Source of the DNA: Enterobacteria phage MED1
Reading direction: 5' to 3' (one strand)
Sequence record: KJ997912.1
Length of the DNA: 5,386 nt
Shown: piece after piece, positions 52 to 5,386 of the stretch
Layout: every line of letters begins with the position of its first letter
Numbering within the stretch: the stretch's first letter is position 1
Notes under the pieces: generated by a model
What the model was told of the DNA's origin: nothing
Seen by the model: the letters and a program-made list of their open reading frames with translations, nothing else
The model's database searches: none
Position numbers and translations under genes: made by a program

Positions 52-136
52 TGAGTCGAAAAATTATCTTGATAAAGCAGGAATTACTACTGCTTGTTTA
101 CGAATTAAATCGAAGTGGACTGCTGGCGGAAAATGA
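1..136 (+). CDS. A: Replication initiator protein A (and A*), C-terminal segment; continuation across the circular junction of the ORF that runs off the window end at 5386 (position 1 is the third base of the junction codon CAG); stop TGA at 134-136
   Basis: Frame continuous with the 3981..5386 ORF when the ends are joined; translation ...[46 protein letters not shown] matches the phiX174 A C-terminus as I recall it; the stop overlaps the gene C start (ATGA at 133-136). Confidence 0.85.
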
Positions 137-221
137 GAAAATTCGACCTATCCTTGCGCAGCTCGAGAAGCTCTTACTTTGCGACCTTTCGCCATCAACT
201 AACGATTCTGTCAAAAACTGA
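51..221 (+). CDS. K: Protein K (56 aa, small nonessential membrane protein), overlapping the end of A and the start of C
   Basis: ATG 51-53 to TGA 219-221; translation [56 protein letters not shown] matches phiX174 K as recalled. Absent from the ORF track, presumably because it is below the length cutoff. Confidence 0.85.
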
Positions 222-393
222 TGCGTTGGATGAGGAGAAGTGGCTCAATATGCTTGGCACGTTCGTTAAGGACTGGTTTAGATATGAGTCACATTTTGTT
301 CACGGTAGAGATTCTCTTGTTGACATTTTAAAAGAGCGCGGATTATTATCTGAATCCGATGTAGTTCAACCATTAATAGGTAAAAAATCATGA
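133..393 (+). CDS. C: Protein C (86 aa; DNA maturation, switch from RF replication to ssDNA synthesis/packaging)
   Basis: ATG 133-135 (ATGA overlap with the A stop) to TGA 391-393 (ATGA overlap with the D start). The ORF track starts at 115, but that codon is GTG; the canonical start is the ATG at 133 ([11 protein letters not shown]...). Confidence 0.9.
320..358 (+). promoter_or_regulatory. Promoter pD (sigma70-type) inside gene C, driving the D-E-J-F-G-H late transcript
   Basis: -35 TTGACA at 320-325, 18-bp spacer, -10 TATTAT at 344-349; expected transcription start about 356-358, consistent with the known pD position in phiX174. Confidence 0.6.
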
Positions 394-848
394 GTCAAGT
401 TACTGAACAATCTGTACGTTTCCAAACCGCGCTGGCTTCTATCAAGCTGATTCAGGCTTCTGCTGTTCTGGATTTAACCGAAGATGATTTCGATTTTCTG
501 ACGAGTAATAAAGTTTGGATTGCTACTGACCGTTCTCGCGCTCGTCGCTGTGTAGAGGCTTGCGTCTATGGTACATTGGACTTTGTGGGATACCCTCGCT
601 TTCCTGCTCCTGTTGAGTTTATTGCTGCCGTCATTGCTTATTATGTTCATCCCGTCAACATTCAAACGGCCTGTCTCATCATGGAAGGCGCTGAGTTTAC
701 GGAAAACATTATTAATGGCGTCGAGCGTCCGGTTAAGGCCGCTGAGCTGTTCGCGTTTACCCTGCGTGTACGCGCAGGAAACACTGACGTTCTTACTGAC
801 GCAGAAGAGAACGTTCGCCAAAAATTACGCGCAGAAGGAGTGATGTAA
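390..848 (+). CDS. D: External scaffolding protein D (152 aa)
   Basis: ORF 390..848; translation [22 protein letters not shown]... is, as far as I can recall, identical to phiX174 D; start overlaps the C stop (ATGA), stop overlaps the J start (TAATG). Confidence 0.95.
   Translation: MSQVTEQSVRFQTALASIKLIQASAVLDLTEDDFDFLTSNKVWIATDRSRARRCVEACVYGTLDFVGYPRFPAPVEFIAAVIAYYVHPVNIQTACLIMEGAEFTENIINGVERPVKAAELFAFTLRVRAGNTDVLTDAEENVRQKLRAEGVM
568..843 (+). CDS. E: Lysis protein E (91 aa; MraY inhibitor), fully embedded in gene D in the +1 frame
   Basis: ATG 568 with AGAGG at 554-558 upstream; translation MVHWTLWDTLAFLLLLSLLLPSLLIMFIPSTFKRP... matches the phiX174 E N-terminal transmembrane domain including the LLLPSLL proline; the C-terminal half carries several substitutions versus the reference as recalled. 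Confidence 0.9.
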   Translation: MVHWTLWDTLAFLLLLSLLLPSLLIMFIPSTFKRPVSSWKALSLRKTLLMASSVRLRPLSCSRLPCVYAQETLTFLLTQKRTFAKNYAQKE

Positions 849-964
849 TGTCTAAAGGTAAAAAACGTTCTGGCGCTCGCCCCGGTCGTCCGCAGCCGTT
901 GCGAGGTACTAAAGGCAAGCGTAAAGGTGCTCGCCTCTGGTATGTAGGTGGTCAACAATTTTAA
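848..964 (+). CDS. J: DNA-binding / packaging protein J (38 aa, highly basic)
   Basis: ATG 848-850 to TAA 962-964; AGGAG at 836-840; translation MSKGKKRSGARPGRPQPLRGTKGKRKGARLWYVGGQQF matches phiX174 J. Confidence 0.9.
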   Translation: MSKGKKRSGARPGRPQPLRGTKGKRKGARLWYVGGQQF

Positions 965-969
965 TTATA

Positions 970-983
970 GGGGCTTCGGCCCC
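970..983 (+). terminator. J-F intergenic stem-loop GGGGC-UUCG-GCCCC (leaky terminator TJ / mRNA stabilising hairpin)
   Basis: Perfect 5-bp GC stem 970-974/979-983 closing a UUCG tetraloop 975-978; no following U-tract, consistent with an inefficient terminator; the gene F ribosome-binding site GAGG lies just downstream at 990-993. Confidence 0.55.
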
Positions 984-1000
984 TTACTTGAGGATAAATT

Positions 1001-2284
1001 ATGTCTAATGTTCAAACTGGCGCACAACGTATGCCGCATGACCTTTCCCATCTTGGCTTCCTTGCTGGTCAGATTGGTCGTCTTATTACCATTTCAACTA
1101 CTCCGGTTATCGCTGGCGACTCCTTCGAAATGGACGTCGTGGGCGCTCTTCGTCTTTCTCCATTGCGTCGTGGCCTTGCTATTGACTCTACTGTAGACAT
1201 TTTTACTTTTTATGTCCCTCATCGTCATGTTTATGGTGAGCAGTGGATTAAGTTTATGAAGGATGGCGTTAAAGCCGCTCCGCTCCCGACCGTTAACACT
1301 ACTGGTAATATTGACCATGCCGCTTTTCTTGGCACGATTAACCCTGATACCAATAAAATTCCTAAGCATTTGTTTCAGGGTTATCTGAATATCTATAACA
1401 ACTATTTTAAAGCGCCGTGGATGCCTGACCGTACCGAGGCTAACCCCAATCAGCTTAATGAAGATGATGCTCGCTATGGTTTCCGTTGCTGCCATCTTAA
1501 AAACATTTGGACTGCTCCGCTTCCTCCTGAGAGTGAGCTTTCTCGCCAAATGACGACTTCTACCACGTCCATTGACATTATGGGTCTGCAAGCTGCTTAT
1601 GCTAATTTGCATACTGACCAAGAACGTGATTACTTCATGCAGCGTTATCGTGATGTTATTTCTTCATTTGGAGGCAAAACTTCTTATGACGCTGACAACC
1701 GTCCTTTACTTGTCATGCGCTCTAATTTCTGGGCATCTGGCTATGATGTTGATGGAACTGACCAAACGTCGTTAGGCCAGTTTTCTGGTCGTGTTCAACA
1801 GACCTATAAGCATTCTGTGCCGCGTTTCTTTGTTCCTGAGCACGGCACTATGTTTACTCTCGCGCTGGTTCGTTTCCCGCCTACGGCGACTAAAGAGATT
1901 CAGTACTTGAATGCTAAAGGTGCTTTGACTTATACCGATATTGCTGGCGACCCTGCTTTGTATGGTAACTTGCCGCCGCGTGAAATTTCTATGAAGGATG
2001 TTTTTCGTTCTGGTGATTCTTCTAAGAAGTTTAAGATTGCCGAGGGTCAATGGTATCGTTATGCGCCTTCTTATGTTTCACCTGCATATCACCTGCTTGA
2101 AGGCTTCCCATTTATTCAGGAACCGCCTTCCGGTGATTTGCAAGAACGCGTACTTATTCGCCATCATGACTATGACCAGTGTTTCCAGTCCGTTCAGTTG
2201 TTGCAGTGGAATAGTCAGGTTAAATTTAATGTGACCGTTTATCGCAATCTGCCGACCACTCGCGATTCAATCATGACTTCGTGA
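1001..2284 (+). CDS. F: Major capsid protein F (427 aa)
   Basis: ORF 1001..2284 with GAGG 7 nt upstream; translation MSN.QTGA.RMPHDLSHLGFLAGQIGRLITISTTPVIAGDSFEMD... is near-identical to phiX174 F with scattered substitutions. Confidence 0.97.
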   Translation: MSNVQTGAQRMPHDLSHLGFLAGQIGRLITISTTPVIAGDSFEMDVVGALRLSPLRRGLAIDSTVDIFTFYVPHRHVYGEQWIKFMKDGVKAAPLPTVNTTGNIDHAAFLGTINPDTNKIPKHLFQGYLNIYNNYFKAPWMPDRTEANPNQLNEDDARYGFRCCHLKNIWTAPLPPESELSRQMTTSTTSIDIMGLQAAYANLHTDQERDYFMQRYRDVISSFGGKTSYDADNRPLLVMRSNFWASGYDVDGTDQTSLGQFSGRVQQTYKHSVPRFFVPEHGTMFTLALVRFPPTATKEIQYLNAKGALTYTDIAGDPALYGNLPPREISMKDVFRSGDSSKKFKIAEGQWYRYAPSYVSPAYHLLEGFPFIQEPPSGDLQERVLIRHHDYDQCFQSVQLLQWNSQVKFNVTVYRNLPTTRDSIMTS

Positions 2285-2315
2285 TAAAAGATTAAGTGTG
2301 AGGTTATAACGCCGA

Positions 2316-2343
2316 AGCGGTAAAAATTTTAATTTTTGCCGCT
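2316..2343 (+). terminator. F-G intergenic long hairpin (terminator TF; core of the PriA / n-prime primosome assembly site used for complementary-strand synthesis)
   Basis: AGCGGTAAAAATT (2316-2328) pairs with AATTTTTGCCGCT (2331-2343), with one G-U wobble; smaller GC hairpins flank it (CCG-AAG-CGG at 2312-2320, GCG-AAG-CGC at about 2359-2367). The F-G intergenic region of phiX174 is the known n-prime recognition site. Confidence 0.5.
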
Positions 2344-2394
2344 GAGGGGTTGACCAAGCGAAGCGCGGTAGGTTTTCTGCTTAGGAGTTTAATC

Positions 2395-2922
2395 ATGTTT
2401 CAGACTTTTATTTCTCGCCATAATTCAAACTTTTTTTCTGATAAGCTGGATCTCCGTTCTGTTACTCCAGCTTCTTCAGCACCTGTTTTACAGACACCTA
2501 AAGCTACATCGTCAACGTTATATTTTAATGAGTTGATGGTTAACGCTGGTAATGGTGGTTTTCTTCATTGCATTCAGATGGACACATCTGTCAACGCCGC
2601 TAATCAGGTTGTTTCTGTTGGTGCTGATATTGCTTTTGATGTCGACCCTAAATTTTTTGCCTGTTTGGTTCGCTTTGAGTCTTCTTCGGTTCCGACTACC
2701 CTCCCGACTGCTTATGATGTTTATCCTTTGGATGGTCGCCATGATGGTGGTTATTATACTGTTAAGGATTGCGTGACTATTGACGTTCTTCCCCGTACGC
2801 CGGGCAATAATGTTTATGTTGGTTTCATGGTTTGGTCTAACTTTACCGGTACTAAATGCCGCGGATTGGTTTCGCTGAATCAGGTTATTAAAGAGATTAT
2901 TTGTCTCCAGCCACTTAAGTGA
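2395..2922 (+). CDS. G: Major spike protein G (175 aa)
   Basis: ATG 2395 with AGGAG at 2383-2387; the ORF track's 2350 start is an in-frame upstream extension without an RBS; translation [18 protein letters not shown]... matches phiX174 G with a few substitutions. Confidence 0.95.
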
Positions 2923-2930
2923 GGTGATTT

Positions 2931-3917
2931 ATGTTTGGTGCTATTGCTGGCGGTATTGCTTCCGCTCTTGCTGGCGGCGCCATGTCTAAATTGTTTGGAG
3001 GCGGTCAAAAAGCCGCCTCCGGTGGCATTCAAGGTGATGTGCTTGCTACCGATAACAATACTGTAGGCATGGGTGACGCTGGTATTAAATCTGCCATTCA
3101 AGGCTCTAATGTTCCTAACCCTGATGAGGCCGCCCCTAATTTTGTTTCTGGTGCTATGGCTAAAGCTGGTAAAGGGCTTCTTGAAGGTACGTTGCAGGCT
3201 GGCACTTCTGCCGTTTCTGATAAGTTTCTTGATTTGGTTGGACTTGGTGGCAAGTCTGCCGCTGATAAAGGAAAGGATACTCGTGATTATCTTGCTGCTG
3301 CATTTCCTGAGCTTAACGCTTGGGAGCGTGCTGGTGCTGGTGCTTCCTCTGCTGGTATGGTTGACGCCGGATTTGAGAATCAAAAAGAGCTTACTAAAAT
3401 GCAACTGGACAATCAGAAAGAGATTGCCGAGATGCAAAATGAAACTCAAAAGGAGATTGCTGGCATTCAGTCGGCGACTTCCCGTCAGAATACGAAAGAC
3501 CAAGTATATGCACAAAATGAGATGCTTGCTTATCAACAAAAGGAGTCTACTGCTCGCGTTGCGTCTATTATGGAAAACACCAATCTTTCCAAGCAACAGC
3601 AGGTTTCTGAGATTATGCGCCAGATGCTTATACAGGCTCAAACGGCTGGCCAGTATTTTACTAACGACCAAATCAAAGAGATGACTCGCAAGGTTAGCGC
3701 TGAAGTTGACTTGGTTCATCAACAGACGCAGAATCAGCGGTATGGTTCTTCTCATATTGGTGCTACTGCTAAGGATATTTCTAATGTCGTCACTGATGCT
3801 GCTTCTGGTGTGGTTGATATTTTTCATGGTATTGATAAAGCTGTTGCCGACACTTGGAACAATTTCTGGAAAGACGGTAAAGCTGATGGCATTGGCTCTA
3901 ATTTGTCTAGGAAGTAA
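2931..3917 (+). CDS. H: Minor spike / DNA pilot protein H (328 aa)
   Basis: ORF 2931..3917; RBS GAGGTGA at 2921-2927 overlaps the G stop; Gly-rich N-terminus ([25 protein letters not shown]) and Q/E/K-rich central coiled-coil region typical of phiX174 H. Confidence 0.95.
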
Positions 3918-3926
3918 CCGTCAGGA

Positions 3927-3955
3927 TTGACACCTTTCTAATTGTGTGATTTCAT
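3927..3955 (+). promoter_or_regulatory. Candidate promoter pA in the H-A intergenic region
   Basis: -35 TTGACA at 3927-3932; TG at 3947-3948 followed by a weak -10 TTTCAT at 3950-3955 (extended -10 arrangement, 17-bp spacer). Position agrees with the known pA of phiX174; exact start site not determinable from sequence. Confidence 0.45.
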
Positions 3956-3980
3956 GCCTCCAAACTTTGGAGGCTTTTTT
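3956..3980 (+). terminator. Rho-independent terminator TH: GCCTCCAAA/TTTGGAGGC hairpin followed by a T6 run, immediately before the A start codon
   Basis: Inverted repeat 3956-3964 / 3966-3974, then TTTTTT at 3975-3980; the 3-prime arm contains GGAGG (3969-3973), which also serves as the Shine-Dalgarno sequence of gene A (ATG 3981). Confidence 0.6.
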
Positions 3981-5386
3981 ATGGTTCGTTCGTATTACCC
4001 TTCTGAATGTCACGCTGATTATTTTGACTTTGAGCGTATCGAGGCTCTTAAACCTGCTATCGAGGCCTGTGGCATTTCTACTCTTTCCCAATCTCCGATG
4101 CTTGCCTTCCATAAGCAGATGGATAACCGCATCAAGCTCCTTGAAGAGATTTTGTCATTTCGTATGCAGGGCGTTGAGTTCGATAATGGTGATATGTATG
4201 TCGACGGTCATAAGGCTGCTTCTGATGTTCGTGATGAGTTTGTGTCTGTTACTGAAAAGTTAATGGATGAATTGGCACAATGTTACAACGTGCTCCCCCA
4301 ACTTGATATTAATAACACTATAGACCACCGCCCCGAAGGGGACGAAAAATGGTTTTTAGAGAACGAGAAGACGGTTACGCAGTTTTGCCGTAAGCTGGCT
4401 GCTGAACGCCCTCTTAAGGATATTCGAGATGAGTATAATTACCCCAAAAAGAAAGGTATTAAGGATGAGTGTTCAAGATTGTTGGAGGCCTCCACTATGA
4501 AATCGCGTAGAGGCTTTACTATTCAACGTTTGATGAATGCAATGCGTCAGGCTCACGCTGATGGCTGGTTTATCGTTTTTGACACTCTTACGCTGGCTGA
4601 TGACCGCTTAGAGGCGTTTTATGATAATCCCAATGCTTTGCGTGACTATTTTCGTGATATTGGTCGTATGGTTCTTGCTGCCGAGGGTCGTAAAGCTAAT
4701 GACTCACACGCCGACTGCTATCAGTATTTTTGTGTGCCTGAGTATGGTTCAGCTAATGGCCGTCTTCATTTCCATGCGGTGCATTTTATGCGGACACTTC
4801 CTACAGGTAGCGTTGACCCTAATTTTGGTCGTCGGGTACGCAATCGCCGCCAGTTAAATAGCTTGCAAAACACGTGGCCTTATGGTTACAGTATGCCTAT
4901 CGCAGTTCGCTACACGCAGGACGCTTTTTCACGTTCTGGATGGTTGTGGCCTGTTGATGCTAAAGGTGAGCCGCTTAAAGCTACCAGTTACATGGCTGTT
5001 GGCTTCTATGTGGCTAAATACGTTAACAAAAAGTCAGATATGGACCTTGCCGCTAAAGGTCTAGGAGCTAAAGAATGGAACAACTCACTAAAAACCAAGC
5101 TGTCGCTACTTCCCAAGAAATTATTCAGAATCCGAATGAGCCGCAACTTCGGGATGAAAATGCTCACAATGACCAACCTGTCAATGGAATGCTTAATCCA
5201 GCTTACCAAGCTGGGTTACGACGCGACGCCGTTCAACCAGATATTGAAGCAGAACGCAAAAAGAGAGATGAGATTGAGGCTGGCAAAAGTTACTGTAGCC
5301 GACGTTTTGGCGGCGCAACCTGTGACGACAAATCTGCTCAAATTTATGCGCGCTTCGATAAAAATGATTGGCGTGTCCAACCTGCA
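3981..5386 (+). CDS. A: Replication initiator protein A (HUH rolling-circle endonuclease; 513 aa in total), N-terminal about 468 codons; the ORF runs off the window end and finishes at 1..136
   Basis: ATG 3981 preceded by GGAGG; no in-frame stop to position 5386; HUH motif HFHAVH encoded at 4767-4784; catalytic tyrosine pair in VGFYVAKYVNKK (Tyr codons 5007-5009 and 5019-5021, residues 343 and 347). Confidence 0.95.
   Translation, partial: MVRSYYPSECHADYFDFERIEALKPAIEACGISTLSQSPMLAFHKQMDNRIKLLEEILSFRMQGVEFDNGDMYVDGHKAASDVRDEFVSVTEKLMDELAQCYNVLPQLDINNTIDHRPEGDEKWFLENEKTVTQFCRKLAAERPLKDIRDEYNYPKKKGIKDECSRLLEASTMKSRRGFTIQRLMNAMRQAHADGWFIVFDTLTLADDRLEAFYDNPNALRDYFRDIGRMVLAAEGRKANDSHADCYQYFCVPEYGSANGRLHFHAVHFMRTLPTGSVDPNFGRRVRNRRQLNSLQNTWPYGYSMPIAVRYTQDAFSRSGWLWPVDAKGEPLKATSYMAVGFYVAKYVNKKSDMDLAAKGLGAKEWNNSLKTKLSLLPKKLFRIRMSRNFGMKMLTMTNLSMECLIQLTKLGYDATPFNQILKQNAKREMRLRLAKVTVADVLAAQPVTTNLLKFMRASIKMIGVSNL
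4299..4328 (+). other. Viral-strand origin of replication (30-nt A-protein recognition sequence); nick site between G4305 and A4306
   Basis: CAACTTGATATTAATAACACTATAGACCAC at 4299-4328 is the canonical phiX174 ori, located inside gene A at the same coordinates as in the reference. Confidence 0.85.
4497..5386 (+). CDS. A*: A* protein (341 aa in total): internal in-frame translation initiation within gene A; continues to 1..136
   Basis: In-frame ATG at 4497 preceded by GGAGG at 4484-4488 (8-nt spacing); corresponds to the known A* start of phiX174 (MKSRRGF...). Confidence 0.75.
   Translation, partial: MKSRRGFTIQRLMNAMRQAHADGWFIVFDTLTLADDRLEAFYDNPNALRDYFRDIGRMVLAAEGRKANDSHADCYQYFCVPEYGSANGRLHFHAVHFMRTLPTGSVDPNFGRRVRNRRQLNSLQNTWPYGYSMPIAVRYTQDAFSRSGWLWPVDAKGEPLKATSYMAVGFYVAKYVNKKSDMDLAAKGLGAKEWNNSLKTKLSLLPKKLFRIRMSRNFGMKMLTMTNLSMECLIQLTKLGYDATPFNQILKQNAKREMRLRLAKVTVADVLAAQPVTTNLLKFMRASIKMIGVSNL
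4850..4900 (+). promoter_or_regulatory. Approximate location of promoter pB (inside gene A, upstream of B)
   Basis: Weak sigma70-like elements only (TTGCAA at 4863-4868, then TTACAG/TACAGT around 4886-4892); placed mainly from knowledge that pB lies about 190 nt upstream of B in phiX174. Exact hexamers uncertain. Confidence 0.3.
5075..5386 (+). CDS. B: Internal scaffolding protein B (120 aa in total), embedded in gene A in a different frame; continues at 1..51
   Basis: ATG 5075 with AGGAG at 5063-5067; translation MEQLTKNQAVATSQE... with the conserved C-terminus after the wrap; the N-terminal third carries several substitutions versus the reference as recalled. Confidence 0.9.
   Translation, partial: MEQLTKNQAVATSQEIIQNPNEPQLRDENAHNDQPVNGMLNPAYQAGLRRDAVQPDIEAERKKRDEIEAGKSYCSRRFGGATCDDKSAQIYARFDKNDWRVQPA

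Follow-up and report, generated by a model that had tools for sequence, protein, structure and literature searches.

In bacteria, in-frame internal initiation gives rise to N-terminally truncated proteoforms, such as the forms of IF2 made from infB. The A* start of the bacteriophage phiX174 group resembles this class in that a Shine-Dalgarno (SD) sequence inside a coding sequence drives synthesis of a shorter product in the same frame. To our knowledge, dyad symmetry at the SD is neither required nor typical in this class. Classical work has established that the A* protein of phiX174 is made from its internal start. The identification of A* is credited to Linney and Hayashi (1973-74), and the phage reportedly remained viable when the A* start codon was changed or removed, in studies attributed to Colasanti and Denhardt (1987) and to Baas and colleagues (Baas et al., 1987). 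Low levels of both A and A* are needed, and their over-expression is harmful (Logel and Jaschke).

The closest described system is the phiX174 A/A* start itself, at nucleotide 4497. The window analysed here, meaning the whole stretch of 5,386 nt, is a complete phiX174-like (Sinsheimervirus) genome in phiX174 numbering. It carries at the same coordinates the same GGAGGCCTCCACTATG, in the same frame and with the same annotation in close relatives, and the element in the window is that element. Only flanking synonymous differences separate the two, for instance TTG in the window versus CTG in phiX174 at 4482, and CAA versus CAG at 4526.

Two further systems are informative. The A* starts of the G4-like phages (Gequatrovirus: G4, WA5, ID52, ID18 and FL68) have a homologous ATG with the same spacing, and an SD that is provided by the same Leu-Glu codons, but they differ in having Glu for Ala, another Ser codon and no dyad symmetry. 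The T_H terminator hairpin, which lies over the gene A ribosome-binding site (GCCTCC...GGAGGC, 3955-3975), shares with the A* site a GGAGGC SD that is accompanied by a CCTCC to pair with. The arms of T_H are separated by a loop, form a real hairpin of -12.8 kcal/mol and are conserved in G4, whereas the arms at the A* start abut each other and do not pair in cis.

The A* start and its Shine-Dalgarno sequence

All eleven classical genes translate cleanly from the window at their phiX174 coordinates. Among the records of the phage collection compared, the closest shares only 96.6% identity overall, and the window is therefore a distinct member of Sinsheimervirus. Within the region 4300-4700, its best relative is Salmonella phage SP14, at 98.8%. 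Gene A extends on the plus strand from 3981 to 5386 and then over the numbering origin to 136, as confirmed by translation and a coordinate check, and its product reads ...LLEASTMKSRR... and continues to a single stop. A* is the C-terminal part of gene A from 4497, on the same strand and in the same frame. Its start codon, the ATG at 4497-4499 (plus strand), lies inside gene A, and the frame from 4497 runs on uninterrupted as far as the stop of gene A, which the two products share. The A* coding sequence is annotated at 4497..136 in phiX174, NC11 and ID45, and the homologous ATG is the annotated A* start in G4, WA5, ID52, ID18 and FL68. The ATG at 4497 is positionally homologous to the annotated A* starts of phiX174 and of these relatives.

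Just upstream of this codon, GGAGGCCTCC is a self-complementary 10-mer at 4484-4493 that occurs once in the genome. An earlier note on this DNA had described it as a 10-bp palindrome. The palindrome is real, and it grows by one base on each side, an extension which that note had missed, into a perfect 12-bp palindrome, TGGAGGCCTCCA, at 4483-4494. This feature, which has no strand, is the sole 12-bp palindrome of the genome. The codons of gene A across the site are TTG GAG GCC TCC ACT ATG, encoding L-E-A-S-T-M within ...SRLLEASTMKSRR..., and translation in frame bears out the ...LEAST... that the earlier note had assigned to A. The left arm of the palindrome is GGAGG (4484-4488, plus strand), which on the evidence of anti-SD energy and conservation is the SD of the A* start. 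A gap of 8 nt separates it from the ATG at 4497-4499, in agreement with the coordinates given by that note. The right arm, CCTCC (4489-4493, plus strand), combines the second and third bases of GCC (Ala) with the whole of TCC (Ser), and would be incidental.

The duplex of GGAGG with ACCUCCUUA, the 3′ end of 16S rRNA, has an energy of -9.3 kcal/mol, which equals that of gene A and ranks with the strongest SD duplexes of this genome. The stretch paired between SD and anti-SD stops 7 nt upstream of the ATG; the site has a purine-rich complement of the 16S 3′ end within the 5-10 nt before the start codon that mark an SD-led start. GGAGG or GAGG is retained at the site in G4, WA5, ID52, ID18, FL68 and SECphi17. 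Given the annotation of A* at 4497 together with the anti-SD energy, GGAGG is the SD of the known internal, in-frame A* start, in the classical A/A* arrangement of phiX174. The identification of GGAGG as the SD of an in-frame A* start in the earlier note was right, has long been known and agrees with the annotation of relatives; indeed all of the factual statements in that note are correct.

We consider that the palindrome is best read as an SD-led A* start with an incidental right arm, and give this reading a probability of about 0.8. Within the gene A mRNA, the left arm would draw 30S subunits to the ATG at 4497, which is in frame, and recruitment there would yield the shorter A* protein. 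The right arm would have no separate function and would be selectively neutral or nearly so. It encodes Ala-Ser by the minor codons GCC TCC directly after xxG-GAG-G, so that the palindromic symmetry would be a coincidence peculiar to this lineage, superimposed on a functional SD.

Conservation of the palindrome in natural relatives

The earlier note had proposed conservation of the palindrome across microvirus genomes as a check of its importance. When this comparison is made, the palindrome proves to be absent in G4-like phages and broken in one natural phiX-like isolate. At the site, G4 reads ttg gag gag tca act ATG, WA5 ttg gag gaa tca act ATG, ID52 ttg gag gaa tct act ATG, ID18 and FL68 ctt gag gaa tcc acc ATG, and SECphi17 ctt gag gag tcc act ATG. 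All six phages keep the SD and the ATG and have Glu for Ala, and none of the six sequences is palindromic (0/6). Since the G4-like phages have the SD without the dyad, SD function needs no palindrome. In alpha3-like phages, the region can be aligned at the protein level only, reads ATG GAG AAG ATG and contains no dyad; the alpha3-like phages carry no annotation of A*. The dyad is not, then, kept in those relatives that have the function it might regulate.

The natural isolate in which the palindrome is broken is ID1, with the sequence TTGGAGGCATCTACTATG. Its right arm carries two changes, GCC>GCA and TCC>TCT, both of them synonymous, and its SD and ATG are unaltered despite these changes. Every other wild phiX-like isolate inspected retains the palindrome, which counts against an incidental right arm: the 12-mer is intact in SP14, SGF3, phiX174, NC11, NC41, NC37, NC56, ID45, GR8, WA11, ID34 and an IMG/VR contig (the IMG/VR sampling comprised four loci, none of them beyond those already represented). 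Across 16 wild phiX-like isolates, 545 sites have been reported to vary silently (Brown et al., 2013), by our own estimate roughly a third of third-codon positions. Both third positions in the right arm, 4490 and 4493, are variable, so the right arm appears to evolve no more slowly than this background, and there is no sign of extra constraint.

Chance expectation

The exact 10-mer GGAGGCCTCC is expected 0.01 times, but the fair null is any palindrome anywhere in the genome, not this particular sequence. In 1000 dinucleotide-preserving shuffles of the genome, 1.35 palindromic 12-mers are expected for the one observed (P = 0.75), and 5.4 palindromic 10-mers for the three observed, and the occurrence of the palindrome is not beyond chance. 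Palindromic 6-mers are strongly depleted (50 observed versus 85 expected). Against these dinucleotide shuffles there is no genome-wide excess of palindromes, which are depleted rather than enriched.

The codons of the right arm can be judged in a similar way. In this genome 17% of Ala codons are GCC and 13% of Ser codons are TCC, giving a probability of 0.0235 for GCC TCC where Ala-Ser is encoded. This joint use of two minor codons counts against an incidental right arm; as an observation made post hoc, it is a mild coincidence.

Laboratory-evolved phiX174 genomes

Laboratory variants were traced from a 45-nt query, which brought out records carrying one further mismatch close to the A* start, followed by searches with the mutant sequences. 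The phiX174 31-mer is identical in 133 of approximately 162 phiX-like records. One recurrent change, G4484A, converts CTG to CTA and GGAGG to AGAGG and is synonymous in A; it is present in 11 records, namely AF299311 (CGGloC), AF299314 (CMMloC) and nine HM7536xx 'XC+Mad' isolates. The other, C4490T, converts GCC to GCT, again synonymously in A, and is present in four (isolates 30A90, 100B90, 250A55 and 250B55). Both tallies leave out the variant records EF380012 and AF299312. The palindrome is therefore broken in 15 viable laboratory-evolved genomes, each deposited complete, a figure that counts records and not independent origins. Viability, then, does not depend on an intact dyad.

The recurrence of these synonymous changes suggests that some bases of the 12-mer are under selection in culture, and the finding of two different A-synonymous substitutions recurring inside it counts against a purely incidental origin. 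It also suggests that the target of selection is the A* ribosome-binding site, not the dyad. The mutations would act through the strength or accessibility of this ribosome-binding site, or through codon quality. Since C4490T at the same time introduces GCT, which is the favoured codon for Ala (62%), we can only infer an effect of this change on the ribosome-binding site.

Putatively adaptive changes have been described at 17/133 known regulatory positions, ribosome-binding sites included (Wichman and Brown). Codons 168-172 of A are not among the detrimental synonymous sites in regulatory elements that a complete mutagenesis study names, a further 93 such sites being left unnamed there (bioRxiv 10.64898/2026.07.25.740675). 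Positions 4484 and 4490 are not mentioned in the main texts of Brown (2013), Wichman & Brown (2010), Pepin & Wichman (2008), Dickins & Nekrutenko (2009) or the 2025 long-term evolution preprint. A literature match to '4484' concerns gene G of phage ID8 and is unrelated.

Alternative explanations for the right arm

The right arm could matter not as half of a palindrome but as part of a larger mRNA hairpin, specific to the phiX clade, which would span approximately 4481-4527, enclose the SD and the AUG, and attenuate A* initiation; we think this unlikely. In the predicted minimum-free-energy structures, which are the same in 45-, 70-, 120- and 220-nt contexts, 4485-4492 pairs with a downstream GAGGCUUU (4510-4517; GAGGCTTT on the plus strand of the DNA) and the AUG lies in an inner stem; in the longer contexts 4481-4486 also pairs with 4522-4527. 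The right arm, as CCUC, pairs here with GAGG at 4510-4513 and not with the left arm, while CUUU and UCAAC form weak pairs with the SD. The predicted probability that the SD is unpaired is 0.01-0.2 and the opening cost 12-15 kcal/mol, which C4490T cuts by about 2-2.5 kcal/mol, whereas G4484A barely alters the predicted fold.

Comparative and statistical evidence for this hairpin is less favourable. Its stability has a z of -1.54 and is equalled in 18/200 shuffles, and its covariation measures, across ten distinct wild sequences, are matched in 201/500 shuffles; neither the stability above shuffled sequences nor the compensatory changes that would mark an attenuator hairpin were found. At 4482:4526 the sequences carry C-G, U-G or U-A and in no case a mismatch, but this pattern requires no more than two substitutions, each on its own branch of the tree. 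The inner stem is broken in NC11, NC41 and NC37, and the pair 4490:4512 is broken in ID1. G4-like phages give different, unrelated predicted folds. Moreover, ribosomes translating gene A would continually unwind the structure. We doubt the wider proposal that an attenuator hairpin of the phiX174 lineage at 4481-4527 sets the output of A*, with G4484A and C4490T adaptive by retuning A* through SD strength or hairpin opening, and the palindrome a side effect of selection for CCUC-GAGG pairing.

A second possibility is a genome-wide tendency to place an anti-SD-like CCUCC beside every strong GGAGG, masking SD-like sequence in mRNA or single-stranded DNA, of which the A* palindrome would be the extreme with no spacer. 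Three of the four GGAGG pentamers in the genome have CCTCC within 25 nt (P of about 3e-4 by shuffling and 5e-4 by random placement), although this statistic includes the A* palindrome itself and a known terminator. Two of these sites form strong hairpins, T_H at the gene A ribosome-binding site with -12.8 kcal/mol and 2997-3020 in gene H with -19.9 kcal/mol, and in G4 the arrangement recurs at the ribosome-binding site of gene A and within gene H (2/5, P = 0.026). These figures hint that the pairing of SD-like with anti-SD-like sequence is non-random in this genome, which counts against an incidental right arm. At the A* site, however, the tendency breaks down: CCTCC is lost in ID1 and absent at the site in G4, where, in a search of the whole genome, none lies within 129 nt of the A*-site GGAGG. 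In addition, arms without a spacer are unable to mask each other in cis. As an account of the A* palindrome, masking is thus very unlikely. Separately, the 8-mer TTGGAGGC is over-represented.

The earlier note had suggested that the symmetry could reflect a regulatory duplex or a protein-binding site. Its absence in G4-like phages and its disruption in ID1 and in 15 laboratory genomes speak against both, as do the lack of an excess over chance and of any meaningful intramolecular duplex. The functional reading of the symmetry thus falls by the criterion of refutation that the earlier note had itself set, a palindrome not shared by related phages. Alone and without a spacer, the palindrome can fold into no more than 4 bp around a loop of 4 nt (-2.2 kcal/mol), not a stable stem-loop, and by these predicted energies such self-folding would be negligible beside SD:anti-SD pairing. 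A cruciform or self-hairpin was rejected on the same grounds. An RNA homodimer would reach -24.7 kcal/mol on paper, but needs two mRNAs to meet and finds no support in conservation. A minus-strand gene that uses the mirrored GGAGG was also rejected, there being no minus-strand ORF of at least 35 aa across 4484-4499. The palindrome has no promoter-like, terminator-like or Rfam match, and the genome holds no second copy, inverted pair or half-site array of it.

That the dyad, as double-stranded RF DNA, binds a dimeric host or phage protein and so modulates transcription or replication through gene A is barely credible: symmetry is its sole support, and against it stand the lack of conservation in G4-like phages and ID1, the disruption of the dyad in 15 viable laboratory lines, the want of a second copy or half-site array and of a promoter or terminator nearby, the overall depletion of palindromes and, as far as we know, the absence from the phiX174 literature of any protein with this dyad specificity. 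The AGGCCT and GGCC within the palindrome are presumably the recognition sequences of StuI and HaeIII, respectively.

Significance

The palindrome at the A* start is an ordinary finding, since the A* start and its GGAGG SD were already known. Both have belonged to the map of phiX174 ever since its genome was originally sequenced, and in this respect the finding matters little; the dyad symmetry adds nothing that is supported by the comparative data. The recurrence of A-synonymous changes at 4484 and 4490 across independent sets of laboratory-evolution data, in turn, makes it plausible that selection on the level of expression acts at the A* ribosome-binding site. The A* mutants at these two positions could provide a small, clean case in which a synonymous change is adaptive by way of an internal ribosome-binding site.

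Sequence context of the A* ribosome-binding site

The octamer TTGGAGGC, which contains GGAGG, is present five times in the window where 0.09 copies are expected, and five or more copies arose in none of 200 shuffles. Four of the five copies lie on the plus strand (1668-1675, 2995-3002, 3967-3974 and 4482-4489, the last at the A* Shine-Dalgarno motif), and one lies on the minus strand (3956-3963). Two copies constitute the arms of T_H, the terminator hairpin overlapping the gene A ribosome-binding site, and two encode Phe-Gly-Gly. Each of the genome's four GGAGG pentamers has TT immediately before it and C immediately after it; in the G4 genome, C directly follows the pentamer in four of five cases.

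Three of the four pentamers in the window genome have a CCTCC within 25 nt (P ~3e-4). These neighbourhoods are found in gene H (2997-3020), at T_H and the gene A ribosome-binding site (3955-3975), and at 4484-4493 within the A* palindrome; in G4, such neighbourhoods lie at 35-52 and 4592-4610. The gene H element, GGAGGCGG-N8-CCGCCTCC (2997-3020), is a strong hairpin within the coding region, with a computed energy of -19.9 kcal/mol. In G4, GCCTCC-N9-GGAGGC lies close to where gene H begins, with the order of the arms reversed relative to the window's gene H hairpin. The window as a whole shows a strong deficit of short palindromes, with 50 palindromic 6-mers observed against 85 expected and 11 palindromic 8-mers against 21, consistent with restriction-site avoidance.

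Variation at the A* ribosome-binding site

The synonymous sites 4482 and 4526 are mutual partners in the predicted hairpin that encloses the A* Shine-Dalgarno motif and start codon (4481-4527). They form U-A in the window, SP14 and SGF3, U-G in ID1, WA11 and ID34, and C-G in phiX174, NC11 and others, and no mismatch was seen among the wild phiX-like phages compared. A stem would fit this pattern, and so, to the same degree, would two changes that arose independently on different branches.

Among GenBank records of phiX174 laboratory lines, two base changes recur within the palindrome, neither of which alters the A protein sequence. G4484A, which weakens the Shine-Dalgarno motif to AGAGG, appears in 11 records, which come from two or more studies, and C4490T (GCC to GCT) in four isolates (30A90, 100B90, 250A55 and 250B55); these tallies count experimental-evolution genome records rather than independent origins. 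Their recurrence suggests that either the A* ribosome-binding site or codon choice is under selection in culture.

Database records and relatedness

The following points concern the GenBank records MZ417522.1, PP501405.1 and one Protaetiibacter phage record. A full phiX174-like genome is embedded at 169-5631 of 'Mycolicibacterium phage J1' (24,953 bp), the probable cause being either a chimeric assembly or contamination from a sequencing spike-in. The Protaetiibacter phage record gives a match as well. Salmonella phage SP14 is a 5.5-kb microvirus that its record places in Caudoviricetes.

The window is only 96.6% identical overall to the nearest record in the collection, whereas its ~4300-4700 region is 98.8-100% identical to SP14, SGF3 and WA4. 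These identities suggest that the window represents a divergent or mosaic Sinsheimervirus lineage.
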